A program made the position numbers and the translations under genes. 64,000 bases of DNA, taken from contig CAVOMX010000017.1 in the NCBI GenBank assembly GCA_963697165.1, positions 24,343-88,342 on the forward strand, given 5' to 3'. Each line of letters opens with the position of its first letter. Position 1 is the first letter of the stretch. The stretch comes from Candidatus Bathyarchaeota archaeon. GTDB lineage: Archaea > Thermoproteota > Bathyarchaeia > Bathyarchaeales > Bathyarchaeaceae. Positions 55,324-64,000 of the stretch are shown here, one piece after another. Below the pieces are notes generated by a model, which was not told the DNA's origin, ran no database searches, and saw only the letters and a list, made by a program, of their open reading frames with translations.

Positions 55324-55551
55324 CCTATCTTTTCGGTTAGAAAAGTAAAAGGATTTCGACCCAAATTAATACTACGAATTTTTCGTATATGCTTTCATTT
55401 AAAATTCAAATGAAGCGAATGAATTTAAATCTAGCGTCAAGGGTACTCTAAATTCAGCTAAAGATAGTTCTCTTCTTAGGGTTGAATCTAGGCGAAAGAA
55501 CATTGTTTCTGCGTCTATAACTAAAAAAGTGTGGATTAAAGCGCAAAAAAG

Positions 55552-55813: not shown

Positions 55814-57487
55814 CTAATACGCTCCTGCGCCAGGAGGCATTCCCATGCCTCCCATGCCTCCCATTCCGCCCATTCCACCGCCTGGTGGCATTGGAGGTGT
55901 TTTCATTTTTCCTGAAGCTATTACATCGTCAATCTTAAGAATTAAAGTTGCGGCTTCGGAACATGATTTGATGATCTGTTTCTTAACTGCCAAAGGCTCC
56001 AAGACGCCAGCTTTCTCCATGTCTCCAGCTTTACCGATGTCAACGTCAACTCCTGCCCAAACTTGTCCTTTATCGTGTAGTGCACGTAGCTCTGAGATTA
56101 TGTCTATCGGGTCTAGTCCAGCGTTTTCTGCTAAAGTGGTTGGTATTACCTCAAGTGCCTCAGCAAACTGCATAACAGCAAGTTGTTCTCTTCCAGGAAG
56201 TGTGTCAGCGTATTCTTTGAGAACTTTTGCAAGTTCCATTTCGGGTGCGCCGCCTCCAGCTAGCAGTTTAGGTTCTTCGACCAGGTCTCCTACAACACAG
56301 AGTGCATCGTGTAGTGAACGTTCTGCCTCGTCAATTATTCTTTCGGTTGCTCCGCGTATGAGGATTGTGACTGCTAACGGATTTTTGCATCCTTCTATGA
56401 AAATCATTTTGGCGTCGCCGATCTTTCGTTCTTCTACGAGCTGGGCGTAGCCAAGGTCCTTCTTGTTTATGTCGTCAAGGTTTGAGACAACTTTCGCGCC
56501 TGTTGCCTTTGCTAATGCTTCCATGTCCGATTTCTTTACGCGTCTGACCGCTAGGATTCCTTTTCGGGAAAGGAAGTGCTGAGCCAAATCGTCAATGCCT
56601 TTCTGACAGAGGACAATATTGGCGCCTTTTGAGAGAACCTTGTCCACCATGCCTTTAATCATGTTTTCTTCCTGTTTGAGGAAAGCATCCATCTGATCTG
56701 GGCTTTCTATGTTAATTTTTGCGTCAAACTCGGTTTTCTCGATCTCAAGTGCAGTATCAATCAAAATAATCGAAGCATTCTCTACACTTTTAGGCATTCC
56801 AGAATGAACTGTCTCTTTGTCAAGAACAATTCCATTTATCAGCTTTGTATCAGTAAGAGATTCGCCAGGCTTTTTCTCAACCTTAATGTTGTCTATGTCT
56901 GCCTTGTAGCTGTCTCCAGTCTTTACGGCAATCTGAAGAACTGCATTAGTGGCGATTTCTCCAAGATAGTCCTTGCTTCCTGACACCATTTTGCTAGCCA
57001 TCGAGGTCATGGCAGCTTTCTTTATGGTTTTCTTGTCAGTTGGGCTGATTTTTATCGCAATTTTCTCCAGAGTTTCAAGAGCCTTTTCAGCAGCTTTCCT
57101 ATAGCCGTCAATAATAATGGTTGGATGAACATTCTTCTCTATGAGCGTTTCAGCTTTTGCAAGCAGTTCTCCTGCAATGATTACAGAAGTTGTGGTGCCG
57201 TCTCCAACTTCATCATCCTGTGTTTTGGCAACCTCCACCATCATCTTTGCGGCTGGGTGCTGAATGTCCATTTCGTCTAAAATTGTGCGTCCGTCGCTGG
57301 TTATTGTCACGTCTCCGAAACTGTCTACCAGCATTTTGTCCATGCCTCTTGGTCCAAGAGCGCTTTTCACTGATTCTGCTACTATTTGCGCAGCCATTAT
57401 GTTGGCGTGCTGGGCTTGTTGCCCTCTTGACCGGGATGCTCCTTCACGGAGTACAAGAACCGGTGTTCCAGTTAATTCAGAAGACAA
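55814..57487 (-). CDS. ths: Thermosome (group II chaperonin) subunit
   Basis: [30 protein letters not shown] tail. Confidence 0.98.
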
Positions 57488-57854
57488 TTAATCATTTCTC
57501 CTTAATTTGTATCGCAAACTTAGAAATTATCTTGAGATATAAAGATTGCTGTATATTAAGATAAACCAGAATGGACGAGACGAAAAATCGTTTTTTAAAA
57601 TACGAAGGGTTTCATTTTTAGTTAACTATCAAAAAAATAGATATTATGGTGAATATTTTTTAACAAAAACCTTTTTCTTTTGTTCAAGTAAAGCATTTTG
57701 ATCATTAATGGCGCGTTTTTGTTTACGGCGAACCCTCTTTGGTAAAAAACGATAAGAAATAACATATTAATTCATTTTTGAATCAAGAATTGTTCAGCGA
57801 GCATGTAGTTATGTGTAGGTAGTTTAATAAAAAGCGTCGATAGACATTAGTCGT

Positions 57855-57880
57855 AGTGTTTAGAATGAGTGTATTCTAAA
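57855..57880 (+). repeat. Putative attL: 18-bp core within the TTTAGAAT-N6-ATTCTAAA dyad
   Basis: Direct repeat with 63875-63892. Confidence 0.8.
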
Positions 57881-57885
57881 TAGAC

Positions 57886-57963
57886 TGGTGACGTCTCCAC
57901 TTTTTACTCGCAACTTCCCCCTTTTTTGACAAGAATATCTCCCACAAAAATCCCCCTTTTTTT
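57886..57963 (+). repeat. Repeat family D copies (one full, one partial)
   Basis: TGGTGACGTCTCCA...GCAACTTCCCCCTTTTTT then AATATCTCCCACAAAAATCCCCCTTTTTTT. Confidence 0.65.
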
Positions 57964-58024
57964 AAATTTAGAATTGCACTTACATAAGAAGGGTAAATAT
58001 TTGTTTAACTAACCAACAAAGGGT

Positions 58025-58227
58025 GGCAAGGTATTACGGTTTGCGTGCGTCTAGACCGTAAGACAGCATAAGGTTCGGTGCTGAGAAGGTAACACGCCCC
58101 CTCTCGGTTTCAGTTAGCACGTCGCTAGCCGCAGTGTTTCTGTGTCAGTTAGCCAAAGCCAACCGTTTCTGTTGCAAACATAGCCGCCAACTATACTTCC
58201 GTAACCGTATGCCATTTGTCCCTTGCC
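58025..58227. ncRNA. Candidate structured non-coding element
   Basis: GC-richer than flanks; terminal GGCAAGG/CCTTGCC pairing and internal stems; no family recognised. Confidence 0.3.
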
Positions 58228-58390
58228 GTAACAATATCATCATTATTTTCTTGTTTATAGGATTTGTTGAACAATAAATTAACAGAAACATCTAATAAAT
58301 TAGCAAAAATCCCCTTTTTTCAGATTCTTCTGCAAATGCTCAGGAGTTAGGCATATTAACTTGATGTCACAATATTATTATGGGGGAGCT

Positions 58391-58585
58391 ATGGTGAAAT
58401 GTATTTTTAGTTCTGAAATCGATTGCCCATCATATGAAGCTCAAAAAGAGTTAGGATATGAACCCAACCCCAAAGAAATTCAGGAGAAAGCTTGTCCTCA
58501 GTGTCCAAACGGACCTAACAGTTTTAAAAAAAATAGAGTATACATTCGCCAAAATGTGCCATCCCGTGGTAACTACATATTCTAG
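58391..58585 (+). CDS. Small Cys-rich protein
   Basis: MVKCIF...DCP...ACPQCP; GGGGAG upstream. Confidence 0.55.
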   Translation: MVKCIFSSEIDCPSYEAQKELGYEPNPKEIQEKACPQCPNGPNSFKKNRVYIRQNVPSRGNYIF

Positions 58586-58647
58586 AATTGCATATTAGCT
58601 CAAGAATCATATTAAAGGGGGATACATTCGCTGAAATGTTCCCCCTA

Positions 58648-58679
58648 GTGGAGACATCTTCCGTAATTCCCCTTTTTTT
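58648..58679 (+). repeat. Repeat family D copy
   Basis: GTGGAGACATCTTCCGTAATTCCCCTTTTTTT. Confidence 0.65.
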
Positions 58680-58796
58680 AAAAAAAGAGATAATCGTTTG
58701 GTAGAAACGCCATAAATTATTAGCTTTGACTTTTTGCGCGCGCGCATTACACGAAACATGTTCAGTCTTCAGTGAAAGAATGATAATGCAAATGAA

Positions 58797-58863
58797 GGAA
58801 ATGGCTGTTCATTCCATGATGGTGATATCACCACTGTGTTTTTGCAAAAACCCCCCCTTTTTT
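58797..58863 (+). repeat. Repeat family D long copy
   Basis: GGAAATGGCTGTTCATTCCATGATGGTGATATCACCACTGTGTTTTTGCAAAAACCCCCCCTTTTTT. Confidence 0.85.
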
Positions 58864-58922
58864 GAGATATTATAGTTTAATCCTGAATCTTAGTCACTCA
58901 AAGTTTCTTAAAAAACTCTTTT

Positions 58923-59621
58923 ATGAATAGTTTCTTAATGATATATCGGGGAACAGTTTTGAAGAAAGCACTAGTTATAATCGGCGTTTGCTTGATTTTT
59001 CTTGGATCATTTTCAAGTGGTTACATTTTGGGACTTGGCCCATTCTTTATTTGGGAAACGGAAATTTATCGAGTCCCTATGTCACTTTTTAGTGATTATA
59101 AGATTATTCGTTACGATTCCTTTGAAGCTAAATCATTCAATTTGGAAACTGGGGAAGAGCTGATAATAAGTTTTGAAGTTACAAATTACACTAAATTGGA
59201 AGATGATATTATTGATATCACCGAAAATAGTGGTAATGTTATTGACTTCTTTGTTCTTGATAAAGAAAACTTCATAAAATGGAAAAATGGAGAAGAAACA
59301 ATAAACCATTTTTATGCACATAGATTGACTTCGGTAAGTCCTAATATCACCATTCCATACGAAAATAACTGGACTTTTGTTCTGGATAACACATTTACCA
59401 ACACAGAGACAAAGGAATTACTTATTGATGTAGATATTATTACTATTCTCCCCTTTCACGGAGATATTGTTGACCGATTTCCTACATTCGTTTTTTTTTC
59501 AGTGATAATAATTTTTTTTGGAATATTACTGGTGGTATTTGGTCTACTGAAAAAGAATTGTAGCAACTCTAAAAGTTATGATTTACAAAAAGAAACCACT
59601 ACAAGTGAAAAACTGATTTAG
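58923..59621 (+). CDS. Membrane protein with extracellular beta-sandwich (GOLD-like) domain
   Basis: N- and C-terminal TM helices; IDFFVLDKENF and WTFVLDN motifs. Confidence 0.65.
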   Translation: MNSFLMIYRGTVLKKALVIIGVCLIFLGSFSSGYILGLGPFFIWETEIYRVPMSLFSDYKIIRYDSFEAKSFNLETGEELIISFEVTNYTKLEDDIIDITENSGNVIDFFVLDKENFIKWKNGEETINHFYAHRLTSVSPNITIPYENNWTFVLDNTFTNTETKELLIDVDIITILPFHGDIVDRFPTFVFFSVIIIFFGILLVVFGLLKKNCSNSKSYDLQKETTTSEKLI

Positions 59622-59627
59622 TTCTAT

Positions 59628-59696
59628 GGAAATGGCTGTTCGTTCCATTGTGGAGATATCTCCCACTTGTTTTCTTGCAGAAACTACCCTTTTTTT
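59628..59696 (+). repeat. Repeat family D long copy
   Basis: GGAAATGGCTGTTCGTTCCATTGTGGAGATATCTCCCACTTGTTTTCTTGCAGAAACTACCCTTTTTTT. Confidence 0.85.
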
Positions 59697-59761
59697 AGTG
59701 TTCTTTGTTTTCATGTTCAATTACTTTCTTTATATCATATCTTTCAAACATGCAGTTCCAG

Positions 59762-59974
59762 CTACAAATCCAAGGACCATTTAGAGTTTTTCTGTAAACC
59801 AACTTCTGTATCATCGGTTTTTTCATAAGTAATCTTCAATGGTTCAATCGAAAGTTTTCTATTACAGGACGGACATTTTCCCTCAGTTCTTTTTCGTAGC
59901 CTATAGATTGGAATCATGTCTCTTCCTTCATAGAGTATTTTTCTACATTCATGACAAACTAACCTCAAAGCCAT
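59762..59974 (-). CDS. Small zinc-ribbon protein
   Basis: CHEC...CPSC. Confidence 0.8.
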   Translation of the reverse strand: MALRLVCHECRKILYEGRDMIPIYRLRKRTEGKCPSCNRKLSIEPLKITYEKTDDTEVGLQKNSKWSLDL

Positions 59975-60193
59975 TTACTATACACCAATTTCTAAAACTA
60001 CATATCTAAATTTAGAACTTGAGTCCAAAAGAAAAGTTACATCCCAGAGAGCAAACCGATACTAAACTTTTCGACTTGTGTTTTGAGTATATTACAGAAA
60101 TGGAAGGAATCAAACTCTTCCGAAAGAGGAAATGGCCTTTCCTACCGTCTTCTTTTTTAACGCCTGCCCCGTTACTTTTAGATGGGAATAATT

Positions 60194-60959
60194 TTGAATG
60201 CAAAATATCAAGTCTATAAAGACATTGGAGGAAAATACAGATTTCGGCTTCGAGCAGCCAATAATAAGATTCTTGTGGTAAGTGAAGGATACCAAACTAA
60301 AGCGGGATGCCTAAACGGTGTGACATCTGTTACAAAAAAATTGTCAATCTAAAATAGAAGATAAAACTATTGAATGCCAAAAACTGTCTAACCCAAAGTA
60401 TGAACTTTTTGTAGATGCCAGTTTAAAGTTCAGATTTAATTTGATTGCAGCTAATGGTCAAATAATTGCTTCTAGTGAGGGTTACAACAGCAAACAAGGA
60501 TGCATACGAGGAATTGATGCAGTCAAGAATAGTTGTGAAAATGCTGTCGAAGATTTAACAACCAATAAAACTGTTGATAAAAAAGTTGAGAACCATGCTA
60601 TGGGGATTGTAGATACAGGCATAGCGATGCTCTCCCCACCCAATGTTGTAGATTCAGATTCGACAGTGACTTTTGAAGGGTGGCTTATGCATAGCAAGAC
60701 AGGGAGAGGCATAGAAAATGCTACAATCAACATTTGGGAAAGTGACAGGTCGTTCATGAGTGATGCATTGCTAACATCTGGAGTAACAGCCAAGGACGGC
60801 AGCTTCAACATAAATTGGACGGCAAAACCGCAGGATTGGTGGGATGACACCGTAGAACTTTATGCAAAATTCAAAGGAACAGAAAAACACAAACCAGTAA
60901 GAAGCGCAAATTATCAAATAAAAGTTCTAAGGCATACAAAACAAAAAGTTGGAAGTTAA
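60194..60959 (+). CDS. Tandem DUF1508 (YegP-like) protein with C-terminal beta domain, frameshift near 60332
   Basis: KYQVYKDIGGKYRFRLRAANNKILVVSEGY and KYELFVDASLKFRFNLIAANGQIIASSEGY. Confidence 0.85.
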
Positions 60960-60960
60960 G

Positions 60961-60991
60961 CTTAGGCTAAATTTTAACCCCAAACCCAAAC
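60961..60991 (-). repeat. Repeat family A copy (reverse orientation)
   Basis: Reverse strand GTTTGGGTTTGGGGTTAAAATTTAGCCTAAG. Confidence 0.85.
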
Positions 60992-61044
60992 TAAGACACC
61001 AATCTTAAATGTTAAGAAAGTGAATAAAAGATAGGGGATTTTGT

Positions 61045-61473
61045 ATGTCATTGGAAGCGAATAAGACGATAGTTCGTAGGATGATTGAAGCCTATAACCA
61101 GCATAACTTGGACTGGTTTGACGAGTTTATCGCACCAGATTATTTTGACCACTCTAATCAAGTCGGTTCAGATGGGGTAAAACAATTATTTATCATGGGT
61201 TTCAAAGGATTCCCTGATTGGCATGAAGCTATTGACGATATCATTGCTGAAGGAGATAAGGTATGGCTTCATCTTACTTATACAGGGACACATACTGGTG
61301 AATTTTTTGGACTACCCCCTACGGGAAATAAGGTTACCATGAAGGCTGTTGCCATCTATCGCATCGCTAATGGCAAACTTGTAGAAGGATGGTTCATCAA
61401 TGACGGACTGGATATGTTCAAACAGATAGGGGCTATCGAATTTACAGAAAAAGGAAAGAAAATCTTTCCATGA
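61045..61473 (+). CDS. SnoaL-like ester cyclase family protein
   Basis: NKTIVRR, FPD, IAEGDKV, GTHTGEFFGLPPTG. Confidence 0.92.
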   Translation: MSLEANKTIVRRMIEAYNQHNLDWFDEFIAPDYFDHSNQVGSDGVKQLFIMGFKGFPDWHEAIDDIIAEGDKVWLHLTYTGTHTGEFFGLPPTGNKVTMKAVAIYRIANGKLVEGWFINDGLDMFKQIGAIEFTEKGKKIFP

Positions 61474-61562
61474 AGTGTCAAATAATCTCGAGCTTGGGCA
61501 AAAAAAGGGTAATGTTGTAATAACTTTCGACTATAATAAAAAAATCTAATGTTGTGTTGTCA

Positions 61563-62034
61563 ATGAAGTCTCTATTGGTTGTGTTTTCATATCATCATAA
61601 TAATACTGAAAAAATAGCTAATGTCTTCGCAAAAGTTCTTGATGCACCAGATAAAAACGCCACAACAAATAAACCCTGAAGAGCTTCAAGAGTATGACTT
61701 GGTAGGTTTTGGTGCAGGGATAGATAGTGGAAAACATTACAAGGTTATGCTTGACCTTGCTGACAAACTGCCGCAAGTAGACAACAAGAACGCATTCATT
61801 TTTTCAACCGCTGCATTAACCGACGAAAAAAAAACGAGGCAAAGACCACTCAACACTTAAAGAAAAATTGGAATCTAAGGGTTATAGGATTGTTGATGAA
61901 TTTCAATGTAAAGGTTTTAACACTAATAGTTTTATGAGGTTTTTGGGGGAATGAACAGAGGCAGACCTAATTCTAAAGACCTCAAAAATGCAGAAGAGTT
62001 TGTTCAGAACCTAAAGCAGAACCTACAAACGTAA
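61563..62034 (+). CDS. Flavodoxin family protein, frameshifted
   Basis: SYHHNNTEKIA, YDLVGFGAGI, FIFST, EFQCKG, GRPN. Confidence 0.85.
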
Positions 62035-62250
62035 AATCTTGAAAAAATAACATTTTAAGGATAATCATTCACTAAAGATGAAAATAGTTTGAACGAGGTT
62101 TGATGTAAAATTTTAATCAATTGATTAAATCAAATCTCCCGCAACTCCCCCTTTTTAATACTTGAATGATTTTCGGGTATTACTTTTCCTTATTTGAAGA
62201 AAAAAGTAAAAAGATTGTTGCTGATAAAAAGTAATGGAGTCAAACACATC

Positions 62251-62811
62251 GTGAATGAGATACTTGTCATAGGTTCTATAGCTCACGAAGAAGCAGATAT
62301 TATTGAATGGACACAACCTTTTGGTGCTCTAGAAAAATACAACTCCCTCATTATTGAACTAACTTCATTTCCAAAAGATTATCCACGAACTCTCTTCAAA
62401 AACATAGCCATACTCAAAAGAACCTCGCGTGTTTTCATTCGAGACAAAAAAGAAATCTTCTGCATCATGGAAAAACCCTTCAAAATCTTATTCAAACATA
62501 TTCCCCTAAACTACTCATGGATACCTTTTCCAGAAAAACTAACAGTCAACCCAATGCTTCTTGGAAAGACAATACATAACAAGAATGAAAGATTCGAAAA
62601 ATACATCAAAAACGTCGAAAAATGGGATAATGAACTATTCTGGGAAACCACAGAAAATTGCAGGTTTGAATCTATTGCCGTTAACAAATCTCAAAACTCG
62701 ATAGCCGCTACAATAACTATAGGGAATAGAGGACAAATTCATTTCTTGCCAAAAATATCTTCTTCTAAGGCTATAGAACTTTTGATTGATTTGATTAACA
62801 AAAACAGTTGA
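62251..62811 (+). CDS. Hypothetical protein
   Basis: Uninterrupted ORF; start between 62194 and 62251. Confidence 0.6.
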   Translation: MNEILVIGSIAHEEADIIEWTQPFGALEKYNSLIIELTSFPKDYPRTLFKNIAILKRTSRVFIRDKKEIFCIMEKPFKILFKHIPLNYSWIPFPEKLTVNPMLLGKTIHNKNERFEKYIKNVEKWDNELFWETTENCRFESIAVNKSQNSIAATITIGNRGQIHFLPKISSSKAIELLIDLINKNS

Positions 62812-62874
62812 TTGGAAACAGAAACTAAAAATGGCGGAAAAAAATCCCATTTTTTAGCTAATCTTTGGTTCTAA

Positions 62875-63123
62875 TTATTCTTTTGAATCTCTAAATCTTC
62901 TTTTTTTTGAAGATTTGGTTCGCATCAGAACTGCGATCGAATGAGAACATTTTTTTCTTCATAAAAACCCGAGACAATTACAACTTACTTTTCTATCGTA
63001 ATTCTGAACAACAATATATGTCCCATGGTCTCCAACAACATTGAATTTTCCTCCACCTAAAGACTCGACTCGACCACTATTAAGTAAATTCTCAGCTTTC
63101 TGAACTAACCTTTCATTGGGCAT
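62875..63123 (-). pseudogene. SWIM zinc-finger protein with an in-frame TGA (missing from the ORF track)
   Basis: MPNERLVQKAENLLNSGRV...GDHGTYIV...SCNCLGFL*RKKCSHSIAV. Confidence 0.75.
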
Positions 63124-63272
63124 TCAAACAACCATTCTTTAAAGTTGTAAATAACAGCAAATAAAAACGTGTTCGGTTTAGTAATATGTTAACACTGGTT
63201 TCTGAATTTTTTGGTATCAGATTTTTCTTCTGGAAAGATGTCTTCGATTTCATAATATTCTTCTCTCATTAA

Positions 63273-63851
63273 ATTATATCTATCAATGATAATGGAAAAA
63301 AGGCAGTTACAAGCCTTCAACTCTTGAAAGAAATAGGTATGCGAAGCGGGGAAACATGGAATCTTGAATGGACACATATAGACATCGAAAACCTCACAGT
63401 TAATTATACACCGGAAAAACATGGCAATCCACGACAGTTTAACGTATATGGAACACTCATGGTGATGCTTAACACTTTACCAAAGACAGGAACAAAAGTT
63501 TTCGGAAACACAAGTTTGATAGCTCATAGAAACAACTTTACACCTCAAAGAAAAAGAATATCCCAAAAATTACATAATCCACGAATCCTCAAAATCAGTT
63601 TTCACACGATAAGACATTGGAAGGCAACAACAGAATACCATAAGACCAAAAATATTCTACACGTTAAAGAGATGCTTTGGCATAGAAGGATCAGTAGCAC
63701 ATTACTTTACAAACACCTCATTAACTTTGAAATCAAAGACTATCATGTGAAAACAGCCAAAACATTAAAAGAAGCATGCGACTTGGCTAAGGTAGGTTTC
63801 AGCTACTTCACCACTATAGAAGGTATACAAATCTTCAGGAAACAAAAATGA
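63273..63851 (+). pseudogene. Tyrosine integrase, N-terminally truncated
   Basis: GMRSGE, EKHG, HTIRH, LWH, TLLY; in-frame stop at 63270-63272 just upstream. Confidence 0.85.
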
Positions 63852-63874
63852 AAAACTATACGAAATTGGGCAGA

Positions 63875-63892
63875 AGTGTTTAGAATGAGTGT
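63875..63892 (+). repeat. Putative attR, overlapping the ATG of the target gene
   Basis: AGTGTTTAGAATGAGTGT. Confidence 0.8.
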
Positions 63893-64000
63893 TTCTCGTA
63901 TACCCATAAGATTTGTTATTGAAGGAGTCGGCAATGCAGAGGGGGAAATTGTTCGCATTCGTTCTCCGAGAACCGCGGATGCTATACTCAGGGGACTTCC
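63885..64000 (+). CDS. Cyclophilin-like fold (TM1367/DUF369-type) protein, 5' part
   Basis: MSVSRIPIRFVIEGVGNAEGEIVRIRSPRTADAILRGLP, runs off the window. Confidence 0.7.
   Translation, partial: MSVSRIPIRFVIEGVGNAEGEIVRIRSPRTADAILRGL

Follow-up and report, generated by a model that had tools for sequence, protein, structure and literature searches.

A stretch of 64,000 nucleotides from Candidatus Bathyarchaeota archaeon (assembly GCA_963697165.1, contig CAVOMX010000017.1), hereafter the window, carries near its right end an island that is probably the decayed remnant of a site-specific integrative element. Its insertion point is within the first three codons of a cyclophilin-like gene; a tyrosine integrase with an N-terminal zinc ribbon likely carried out the insertion, and the gene likely remained expressed, as judged from sequence comparison. 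Bathyarchaeia are an abundant, mostly uncultured group. The assembly is a 1.99-Mb genome (G000) that is 81% complete, and the right end of the window is the end of the contig. Genomes are labeled G, contigs of G000 C, loci L and sequencing runs X, each with a number, while coreA, ftr-type, arm and M2 are names given here to sequence motifs and junctions. New here are a target at a start codon, for which alleles in the empty, intact and decayed state were found, and an arm motif shared across targets. The literature searched contained no description of the integrase family, the arm or the cyclophilin-like target; most subscription journals lay outside that search, and supplementary tables and the TIGER/Islander database may list such islands.

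The region is bounded by an exact 18-bp direct repeat (57855-57872 and 63875-63892), as an earlier note on this DNA had reported. With up to three mismatches allowed, there was no third match to the 18-mer in the window or the 1.99-Mb genome; shuffled sequence gave a mean of 0.09 matches, and two matches in 0 of 100 shuffles. Core to core, the island unit is 6,020 bp long. The right copy (63875..63892, + strand; attR core, supported by the repeat and by relatives' loci) contains the ATG of the target gene at 63885, and the 64-kb window has no tRNA gene, in agreement with the note's placing of the insertion at a protein-gene start rather than a tRNA. This copy adjoins the end of the integrase, as had been described, with 23 bases between them, counted from the stop codon, rather than the 24 given. 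The left attachment (att) site, attL (57855..57885, + strand), consists of the 18-bp core and the element-derived half-site ATTCTAAA, as judged from the repeat, the dyad and the relatives' alignment. The dyad with a six-base spacer that the note had seen in the left copy was found at 57859-57880 as TTTAGAAT-GAGTGT-ATTCTAAA. Joining the element halves on paper gave a perfect 10-6-10 dyad around the spacer GAGTGT, which would be the attP core. The attL of L082 and L094 has one host-side mismatch, which places the crossover within ATGAGTGT. The island is poorer in GC (35%) than its contig (38%) and the whole genome (41%), which is a weak signal. Contigs of other sequencing runs bridged the junction of thermosome gene, attL and arm (X3 record 19, 57345-57927) and that between cargo and truncated integrase (X1 record 8, 62939-63503); these two junctions are therefore not assembly artefacts. 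None of the pieces listed from other runs spanned the whole island.

The two repeats are the true attL and attR of a tyrosine-integrase element, as the note had proposed, since near-identical empty and occupied alleles diverge exactly at the repeat. A scan of metagenomes of the Joint Genome Institute (JGI) for the 18-mer yielded 30 partly redundant loci, comprising 9 empty sites, 8 integrase-attR junctions, one attL and 12 unrelated sequences, with about four distinct occupied alleles. To the left of the core, the empty locus L102 equaled the occupied locus L098 at 59/60 nt; to the right, the empty locus L084 matched L098 at only 12/60 nt and the attR locus L090 at 285/300. The target gene was present in 53 of 61 genomes searched. 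The host flank of the island is a thermosome subunit gene (55814..57487, - strand; PF00118), which lies divergent from the target within 1.5 kb and without an insert in 16 of 19 same-genus loci, so that empty sites with the arrangement predicted by the note do occur. Two of the others (G024 and G013) have unrelated insertions of 4.2 and 5.8 kb upstream of an intact promoter, and in one (G019) an integrase runs up to the same core (attR); the thermosome contig of G019 begins inside the gene, and only the attR end of its island was seen. In other genera, the thermosome gene stood beside the target in 0 of 10 loci. The two findings that the note had named as fatal to its proposal, intervening genes kept as stable synteny in relatives or empty sites that do not break at the repeat, were not obtained, the empty alleles breaking at the core.

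Complete elements with both ends at the same site were found in L082 and L094. The ends of the L094 element are 8.45 kb apart and enclose an intact 374-aa integrase, whose open reading frame (ORF) starts at an ATG of its own and is contained entirely in the integrated element, together with a second, weak recombinase match, a winged helix-turn-helix gene, an AbrB-like gene and small ORFs. No structural PHROG was found among the 5 window ORFs and 11 of the ∼13 L094 ORFs scanned. An attP for the cyclophilin site was absent from the 30 JGI matches, and its attL/attP pattern had 0 matches in GTDB contigs and 0 in IMG/VR; attP/attB joints were likewise absent from those listed for four sequencing runs, of which only contigs were compared and which hold at most 29% of the words.

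The ORF directly before attR (63324-63851) matched PF00589, and alignment to the L094 integrase identified it as part of a 5′-truncated tyrosine integrase (63294..63851, + strand) that corresponds to residues 190-374 of this intact relative at 83% identity. The note's statement that the integrase is truncated is thus correct: residues 1-189, with the zinc ribbon and the core-binding domain, are gone, and the invariant G318 is replaced by W. Same-site integrases were ∼82–83% identical to that of the window, and the one in G019 is truncated at a different point and frameshifted. The intact integrase has an N-terminal C4 zinc ribbon, a core-binding domain and a catalytic domain, in this order, and the R-K-H-R-H-Y residues are intact in the L094 and L101 integrases. 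The ribbon was closest to IS1/InsA models, with matches below the cut-offs, and was predicted to form three strands and a helix. Fold searches with whole models were filled by the other integrase domains and bear on these rather than on the ribbon (residues 1-79), and a sequence search of the PDB with the ribbon returned generic zinc-finger matches only. The integrase is neither XerA nor IntI (TIGR02249, 57.8 bits against a cut-off of 265).

The family is large, with 3,122 homologues at E ≤ 1e-20 among 4,273 candidates, ribbon matches in 135 of 251 genomes of the order, and relatives encoded on 13 of 60 candidate IMG/VR stretches. The 3′ ends of its integrases adjoin target sites. Among 80 GTDB integrase loci, 6 had no scored end, 9 lay at contig ends and 65 were classifiable, 45 of which adjoined tRNAs; only these tRNA counts were relied on, the ORF5 and ORF3 classes being crude and likely to include spurious ORFs. 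Full-length family ORFs occur on C20 and C25 of the same genome. An integrase of the same specificity was absent from the assembled 81% of the genome, in which the best other copy was 56% identical. Elsewhere in the genome, family integrases end just before a CbiA/ParA-type gene, a ribosomal protein L44e gene, tRNA-Glu 5′ ends or a tRNA-Ile 3′ end (C20:8255, C25:156091, C1:8097, C14:26, and C24:135467), and in G003 (L050) one ends just before the 3′ end of the Rpo6 gene. The family also has a small, conserved beta-alpha-beta-beta extension after the catalytic domain (P0001 residues 338-374), which is the integrase part most often left as a stub beside targets.

Beyond attL lies a conserved arm (57886..57927, + strand; profile and attL alignment) with the palindrome TGGWGA-NN-TCWCC, a CGCAA-type motif, and a terminator-like C-run and T-run. 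Sequence matches revealed a partial second copy next to it (57933..57963, + strand) and another partial arm further along the island (62133..62156, + strand). The arm is ∼45 bp long and begins 13 nt past the core in 4/4 aligned attL sequences. A hidden Markov model (HMM) seeded on four window copies found 59 copies in the genome at E < 0.01, against 0 on the reversed genome. These arms were preceded by pieces of different targets, namely the ends of tRNA-Pro, -Ile and -Glu, ftr, a gene that we take to be CooC/ParA-like (CbiA/ParA in Pfam) and the antisense end of a ∼160-aa gene, and elements of no fewer than 8 core types have the arm. At the partner att sites found in the 80 GTDB loci, the arm was present in 6 of 9 (control 2/3,600), and the strict pattern occurred in 38 of 251 genomes with one control match; viral contigs gave 19 raw matches to the arm pattern. 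In L225, integrase, core and arm stood in a row, which is the order of an attP, for another site. The arm thus marks one end of the elements of the zinc-ribbon integrase family at many targets, and dozens of stacked and probably mobile gene modules in this genome have it at their boundary. We infer that the zinc ribbon binds the arm palindrome, and the T-run of the arm would end transcription of the integrase while the element is circular and, once it is integrated, transcription from the host side.

Among 63 typed arms (of 119), the subtype tracked the core type in 34, against a mean of 13.5 and a maximum of 26 in shuffles, kin not being independent in this count; core and arm therefore mostly travel together rather than being freely swapped. 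A crossover within the arm palindrome was disfavored, as the subtype tracks the core type and the borders of a shared 2.3-kb unit fall in the tRNA core. The idea that the strict arm co-occurs with the zinc ribbon was rejected, since the ribbon of family f9 was present in 75 of 98 genomes and the strict pattern in 1 of 98. Among 16 f9/f11 loci, a variant arm followed three strong partner sites and was absent at a fourth, weak partner.

At C6:61136-61264, a single coreA-like sequence is flanked by two arms that point away from each other. The genome also has another dispersed palindrome, M2, with the core GGGTTAAA-T-TTTAACCC followed by CAAACCCAAA; it had 52 matches on both strands of the genome against 0 in reversed controls, 6 of the 52 lying directly after an arm, and may serve as a site for some other recombinase or for a regulator.

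The interior of the island contains cargo interspersed with junctions of other targets; neither this mixture nor the arm is mentioned in the note. From the left, a 74-aa ORF without a family (58361..58585, + strand; ORF and profile searches), with a lone C/T-run just upstream (58311-58320), overlaps a degenerate ftr-type core without an arm (58540..58558, + strand), the ftr target being PF01913/PF02741. Foreign junction 1 (58622..58679, + strand; palindrome 58649-58661) is an ftr-type core with an arm, and its core equals the attL of an ftr island at C6:63085 with 0 mismatches in 23 nt. Foreign junctions 2 (58797..58863, + strand) and 3 (59628..59696, + strand), identified by sequence match, each consist of coreA and an arm, coreA being the antisense 3′ end of a conserved ∼160-aa gene ending in EQPFP; between them lies a 232-aa predicted membrane protein (58923..59621, + strand) with a 76% DNA homologue on C18. 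Further along is a 70-aa zinc-finger-like ORF (59762..59974, - strand), whose region has a 93% counterpart on C16. Beyond it stand the final 24 codons of another integrase from the zinc-ribbon family (60061..60142, + strand; C-terminal HMM, E = 6.5e-6), which appears to end in a coreA-like sequence 4 bases short. These are followed by a DUF1508 repeat protein in two pieces (60182..60959, + strand), with a homologue also in the G019 island, an M2 repeat (60967..60990, + strand), a SnoaL-like protein (61045..61473, + strand; PF07366), a flavodoxin-like gene broken over three frames by decay or indel errors (61563..62035, + strand; Pfam), and a 205-aa ORF without a family (62194..62811, + strand) that is covered by contigs of X1 and X4.

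Among the tblastx matches listed, and in agreement with blastn, what the island has in common with L094 and L082 is limited to the attL/arm end and the tail of the integrase, the backbone of L094 being replaced by other cargo. Foreign junctions are also present inside the same-site islands L082 and L098, which shows that mixing recurs. The coreA junctions of relatives are found downstream of the cyclophilin-like target, and the coreA target gene itself is normally just downstream of it. The coreA target (L117:1496-1969) encodes a conserved 157-aa protein without a Pfam match; it is absent from the assembled genome of the host and probably lies in the gap after the window contig. The ftr island (L284; C6:57336-63085), 5.75 kb long, is a sister of the window island from the same family and sits within the 5′ part of ftr, with the original N-terminal ∼35 codons orphaned at attL and a homologous replacement stretch that has no clear start and an apparent frameshift.

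A recognizable integrase C-terminus was looked for within 200 bp upstream of each arm and found at 0 of 53 in the genome and at 0 of 50 from the fetched loci, and the last five integrase codons were kept at no more than 4 of 52 arms, one of these doubtful. Neighboring arms were co-oriented in 30 of 32 pairs. A 2,343-bp integrase-less unit between two tRNA-Pro junctions was 97.7% identical in G000 and G019, with different neighbors on both sides, core genes of these genomes being ∼80–85% identical; it was whole in 2 of 25 genomes of the genus. The G019 contig carries other high-identity pieces too and could be misbinned, in which case the claim of movement between species would fall and the shuffling of junctions would stay. 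An array of 12 palindrome-bearing arm junctions, 0.3–5.9 kb apart, was found at C10:2340-25884 (L287, L288), the arms mostly following tRNA-Pro 3′ fragments; there was no integrase at the tRNA 3′ end, where G019 has an intact one, and the att sites within this array come from one and the same target. A host origin of the AT-rich flank left of tRNA-Pro junctions was looked into at 16 loci, which shared no core gene downstream. Reading the junctions as structured RNA or attC sites was rejected: Rfam gave two sub-threshold matches and the folds were unremarkable, with z of -0.3 to -2.0 and only short separate stems for three island junctions tested on both strands for attC-like folding.

Alternatively, the island could still be active, as a module of an integron-like network in which intact family integrases, resident with another specificity or visiting on plasmid-like elements or viruses, move integrase-less core-arm units in trans across targets via the shared arm. 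The unit shared with G019, the arms without an integrase C-terminus, their common orientation, the foreign cores in L082 and L098, the full-length ORFs on C20 and C25 and the relatives on 13 IMG/VR contigs are all consistent with such a network. However, the shared unit sits at tRNA-Pro and not in the window island, on a G019 contig of uncertain binning, the arm subtype tracks the core type, the cargo of the island is partly broken, and neither an attP in JGI metagenomes, GTDB or IMG/VR nor a joint among those listed for the four runs was found for the cyclophilin site. We therefore regard an active module as possible and rather doubtful. A broader version is about as tentative, if a shade less so: that Bathyarchaeia would maintain a genome-wide, integron-like exchange network without integrons, in which one zinc-ribbon integrase family has been retargeted to dozens of sites (tRNA 3′ and 5′ ends, protein-gene starts and ends) and recognizes a universal ribbon-bound arm, and integrase-less core-arm cassettes are captured, stacked and moved between sites and species, the window island being a hub of three specificities.

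The consequences of the insertion for the target gene were considered next to the possibility, implied by the note, that it acts as a regulatory switch, silencing the cyclophilin-like gene by removal of its promoter, with excision turning the gene on. Such a switch would suit a crossover between promoter and coding sequence, the terminator-like T-run after attL, and an occupancy that is polymorphic among very close relatives. The state of the gene points the other way. Only its first 38 codons (63885..64000, + strand) are present, because the window stops at the contig end 108 bases past attR; the fragment had no Pfam match, and the full-length orthologue is PF04126 (Cyclophil_like). In 4/4 fully sequenced occupied alleles, however, the target ORF is 122 aa long, and the rates of nonsynonymous and synonymous polymorphism (pN/pS) between occupied alleles were 0.007/0.051 (G019-L088) and 0.013/0.101 (L078-L101), by which measure the gene is under purifying selection in these alleles.

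The host promoter and leader left at attL (57823..57854, + strand) are eroded. In an alignment with three occupied and two empty relatives, the AATAAAA block is kept and the leader is 10–11 nt shorter than in 5/5 relatives, the GGTG of the GGTGAG ribosome-binding motif being lost. The orphan TATA-like sequence that the note had placed at 57823, TTTAATAA, is at that position, but it overlaps the conserved AATAAAA block and not the TATA-like bases that follow this block in relatives. At the other end, the element supplies the target ATG without the host GGTGAG motif. It also carries the sequence TGAAAAA(C/G)TATA (63849..63862, + strand), conserved in 7/7 aligned attR flanks (6 distinct), as a candidate replacement for the B recognition element and TATA box ∼35–25 nt before the ATG. 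A promoter model from 361 upstream regions (medians 5.2 for real and 4.1 for shuffled sequence) was too weak to call promoters, and in this weak model the motif did not score above background. Given the general spacing between archaeal promoters and transcription starts, the position of TGAAAAA(C/G)TATA would be consistent with a transcript that has no leader; alternatively, transcription may read through from the integrase. A 20-base stretch on the - strand at 55381-55400 is 85% like the candidate replacement promoter and lies 58 bases upstream of a fragmented ORF series (55323-54071), which suggests a promoter-like motif there as well.

Since the target ORF is intact and constrained and the element supplies an ATG and a TATA-like motif, integration was most likely benign for the gene, as proposed for the dusA islands compared below. 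Excision would not restore the ancestral leader, because the orphan leader has lost 10–11 bases including GGTG; the note's suggestion that excision would give the gene back its native promoter is therefore not supported in the regulatory sense. With the integrase broken both in the window and, at another breakpoint and by a frameshift, in G019, and with no excised or empty junction among those listed for the sequencing runs compared, a regulatory switch is unlikely, and in our estimation markedly so. That the repeat arose by chance doubling of a translation-start motif, or by misassembly, without any site-specific integration, might be imagined in an interval that takes unrelated insertions (G024, G013) and extra ORFs (L093, L098) and in a contig that ends 108 bases past attR, but it is scarcely credible and already refuted by a repeat unique in the genome, the independent contigs across two junctions, the complete elements L082 and L094, and empty alleles that break at the core.

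The favored course of events is thus the arrival and decay of a site-specific element. Its circular form would read integrase stop, core, arm. A crossover in a 6–8-bp overlap within ATGAGTGT would have placed the integrase end, a new ATG and the TATA-like motif before the gene, leaving the host promoter to face the arm, whose T-run would stop read-through. The island would have taken up or kept modules whose junctions of core and arm belong to two further targets of the integrase family, ftr and the coreA gene, and with the integrase broken would likely be frozen as a unit like a cis-mobilizable element (CIME). Several points weigh against this account. Expression of the target in occupied alleles is a prediction: the runs were compared as contigs only, and the promoter model hardly told real upstream regions from shuffled ones. 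Purifying selection over a whole branch is no proof of expression since the insertion, and the host's own genome has only 38 target codons. Both att sites are nearly intact, the 10-bp dyad having a single mismatch, so the frozen state is unproven; the assembly covers 81% of the genome.

The interval between thermosome and target is an insertion hot spot apart from the att site (L033 of G013, L032, L093, and L102). The G013 insertion (L033, 12654-18420) has apparent other recombinase genes, read by eye, and extra ORFs occur in the interval in L093 and L098. In some same-genus genomes, the divergent thermosome gene is a paralogue 86–90% identical to that of the window, and in others another (∼60–70%) at the same position, a difference seen across L002-L021, L074, L082, and L094.

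With clear boundaries at both ends, the island documents integration into a start codon in an archaeon; in the main text of one survey, every archaeal element in a protein gene had its target at the 3′ end (PMC6563490). Because the site is known in empty, intact and decayed form and a 10-6-10 attP is predicted, integrase and sites could now be tested in vitro. A single short arm motif that marks element ends across many targets offers a way to delimit accessory modules in Bathyarchaeia genomes, and lets one ask how an integrase family changes its target while keeping its accessory site. Cross-target movement in trans, if true, would be an archaeal functional analogue of integrons.

Among known systems, dusA-associated islands enter the 5′ end of a protein gene, supply a replacement 5′ end and, in the text of that study, are predicted to keep transcription (Farrugia et al., 2015; PMC4482086). 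The island shares with them the insertion at a 5′ end, the element-supplied ATG in a duplicated core and the ORF intact in 4/4 complete occupied alleles. In contrast to those bacterial islands with one fixed target and a different integrase, the target here is PF04126 and not dusA or dusB, and the integrases form an archaeal family with an IS1-like zinc ribbon, mostly tRNA targets (45/65), several protein-gene targets and one shared arm. In the main text on Thaumarchaeota, 14 of 68 mapped elements are in protein genes, all 3′-distal (Krupovic et al., 2019; PMC6563490). The cryptic integrated elements of that survey resemble the present one in being archaeal, with short att sites, some in protein genes, and in being verified by empty sites, and tandem re-use of sites is noted there; they differ in that the target here is a start codon, and that main text does not contain the word "Bathyarchae".

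CIMEs and tandem accretions are described as decayed elements that keep attL and attR, and as stacked islands, many without an integration module (PMC5704250; Dehalococcoides ssrA islands, PMC3146451), with a conserved element-side motif beside the direct repeat. The window island is like a CIME in having lost integration genes and kept attL and attR, but differs from the stacks at one target in the available text of these reports in that it holds junctions of three targets, those inside it being ftr-type and coreA-type. Lambda-type integrases have an extra N-terminal arm-binding domain (Smyshlyaev et al., 2021; PMC8138268). In the present family, too, an additional domain precedes the core-binding and catalytic ones, and a conserved accessory sequence lies next to the core; the additional domain, however, is a C4 zinc ribbon nearest to IS1/InsA and only a candidate for arm binding. 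Helper and directionality factors are described as not essential for archaeal integrases (Badel et al., 2021; PMC8371274).

Like integrons, including archaeal ones as described in a preprint (Ghaly et al., bioRxiv 10.1101/2022.02.06.479319), the arrays consist of co-oriented, integrase-less cargo between repeated recombination-type sites. Unlike integrons, the integrase is not IntI, the junctions lack attC-like folds, and the sites are att cores of host genes with an arm; of units moving between arrays, a trait of integrons, there is one candidate, the 2.3-kb unit shared at 97.7% with different neighbors, for which misbinning is possible. Integration does not split the integrase gene, as shown by the intact 374-aa ORF inside L094, unlike that of the suicidal integrases of the Sulfolobus spindle-shaped virus (SSV) type. 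Compared with a provirus, there was no structural PHROG in the ORFs scanned, although the integrase family occurs on viral contigs; Bathyarchaeia proviruses have been described (PMC11705971), and the available text of that report describes neither the zinc-ribbon integrase family nor the cyclophilin site. By analogy with these systems, the element would best be seen as a 5′-replacing island that has decayed into a CIME, neither an integron nor of the SSV type.

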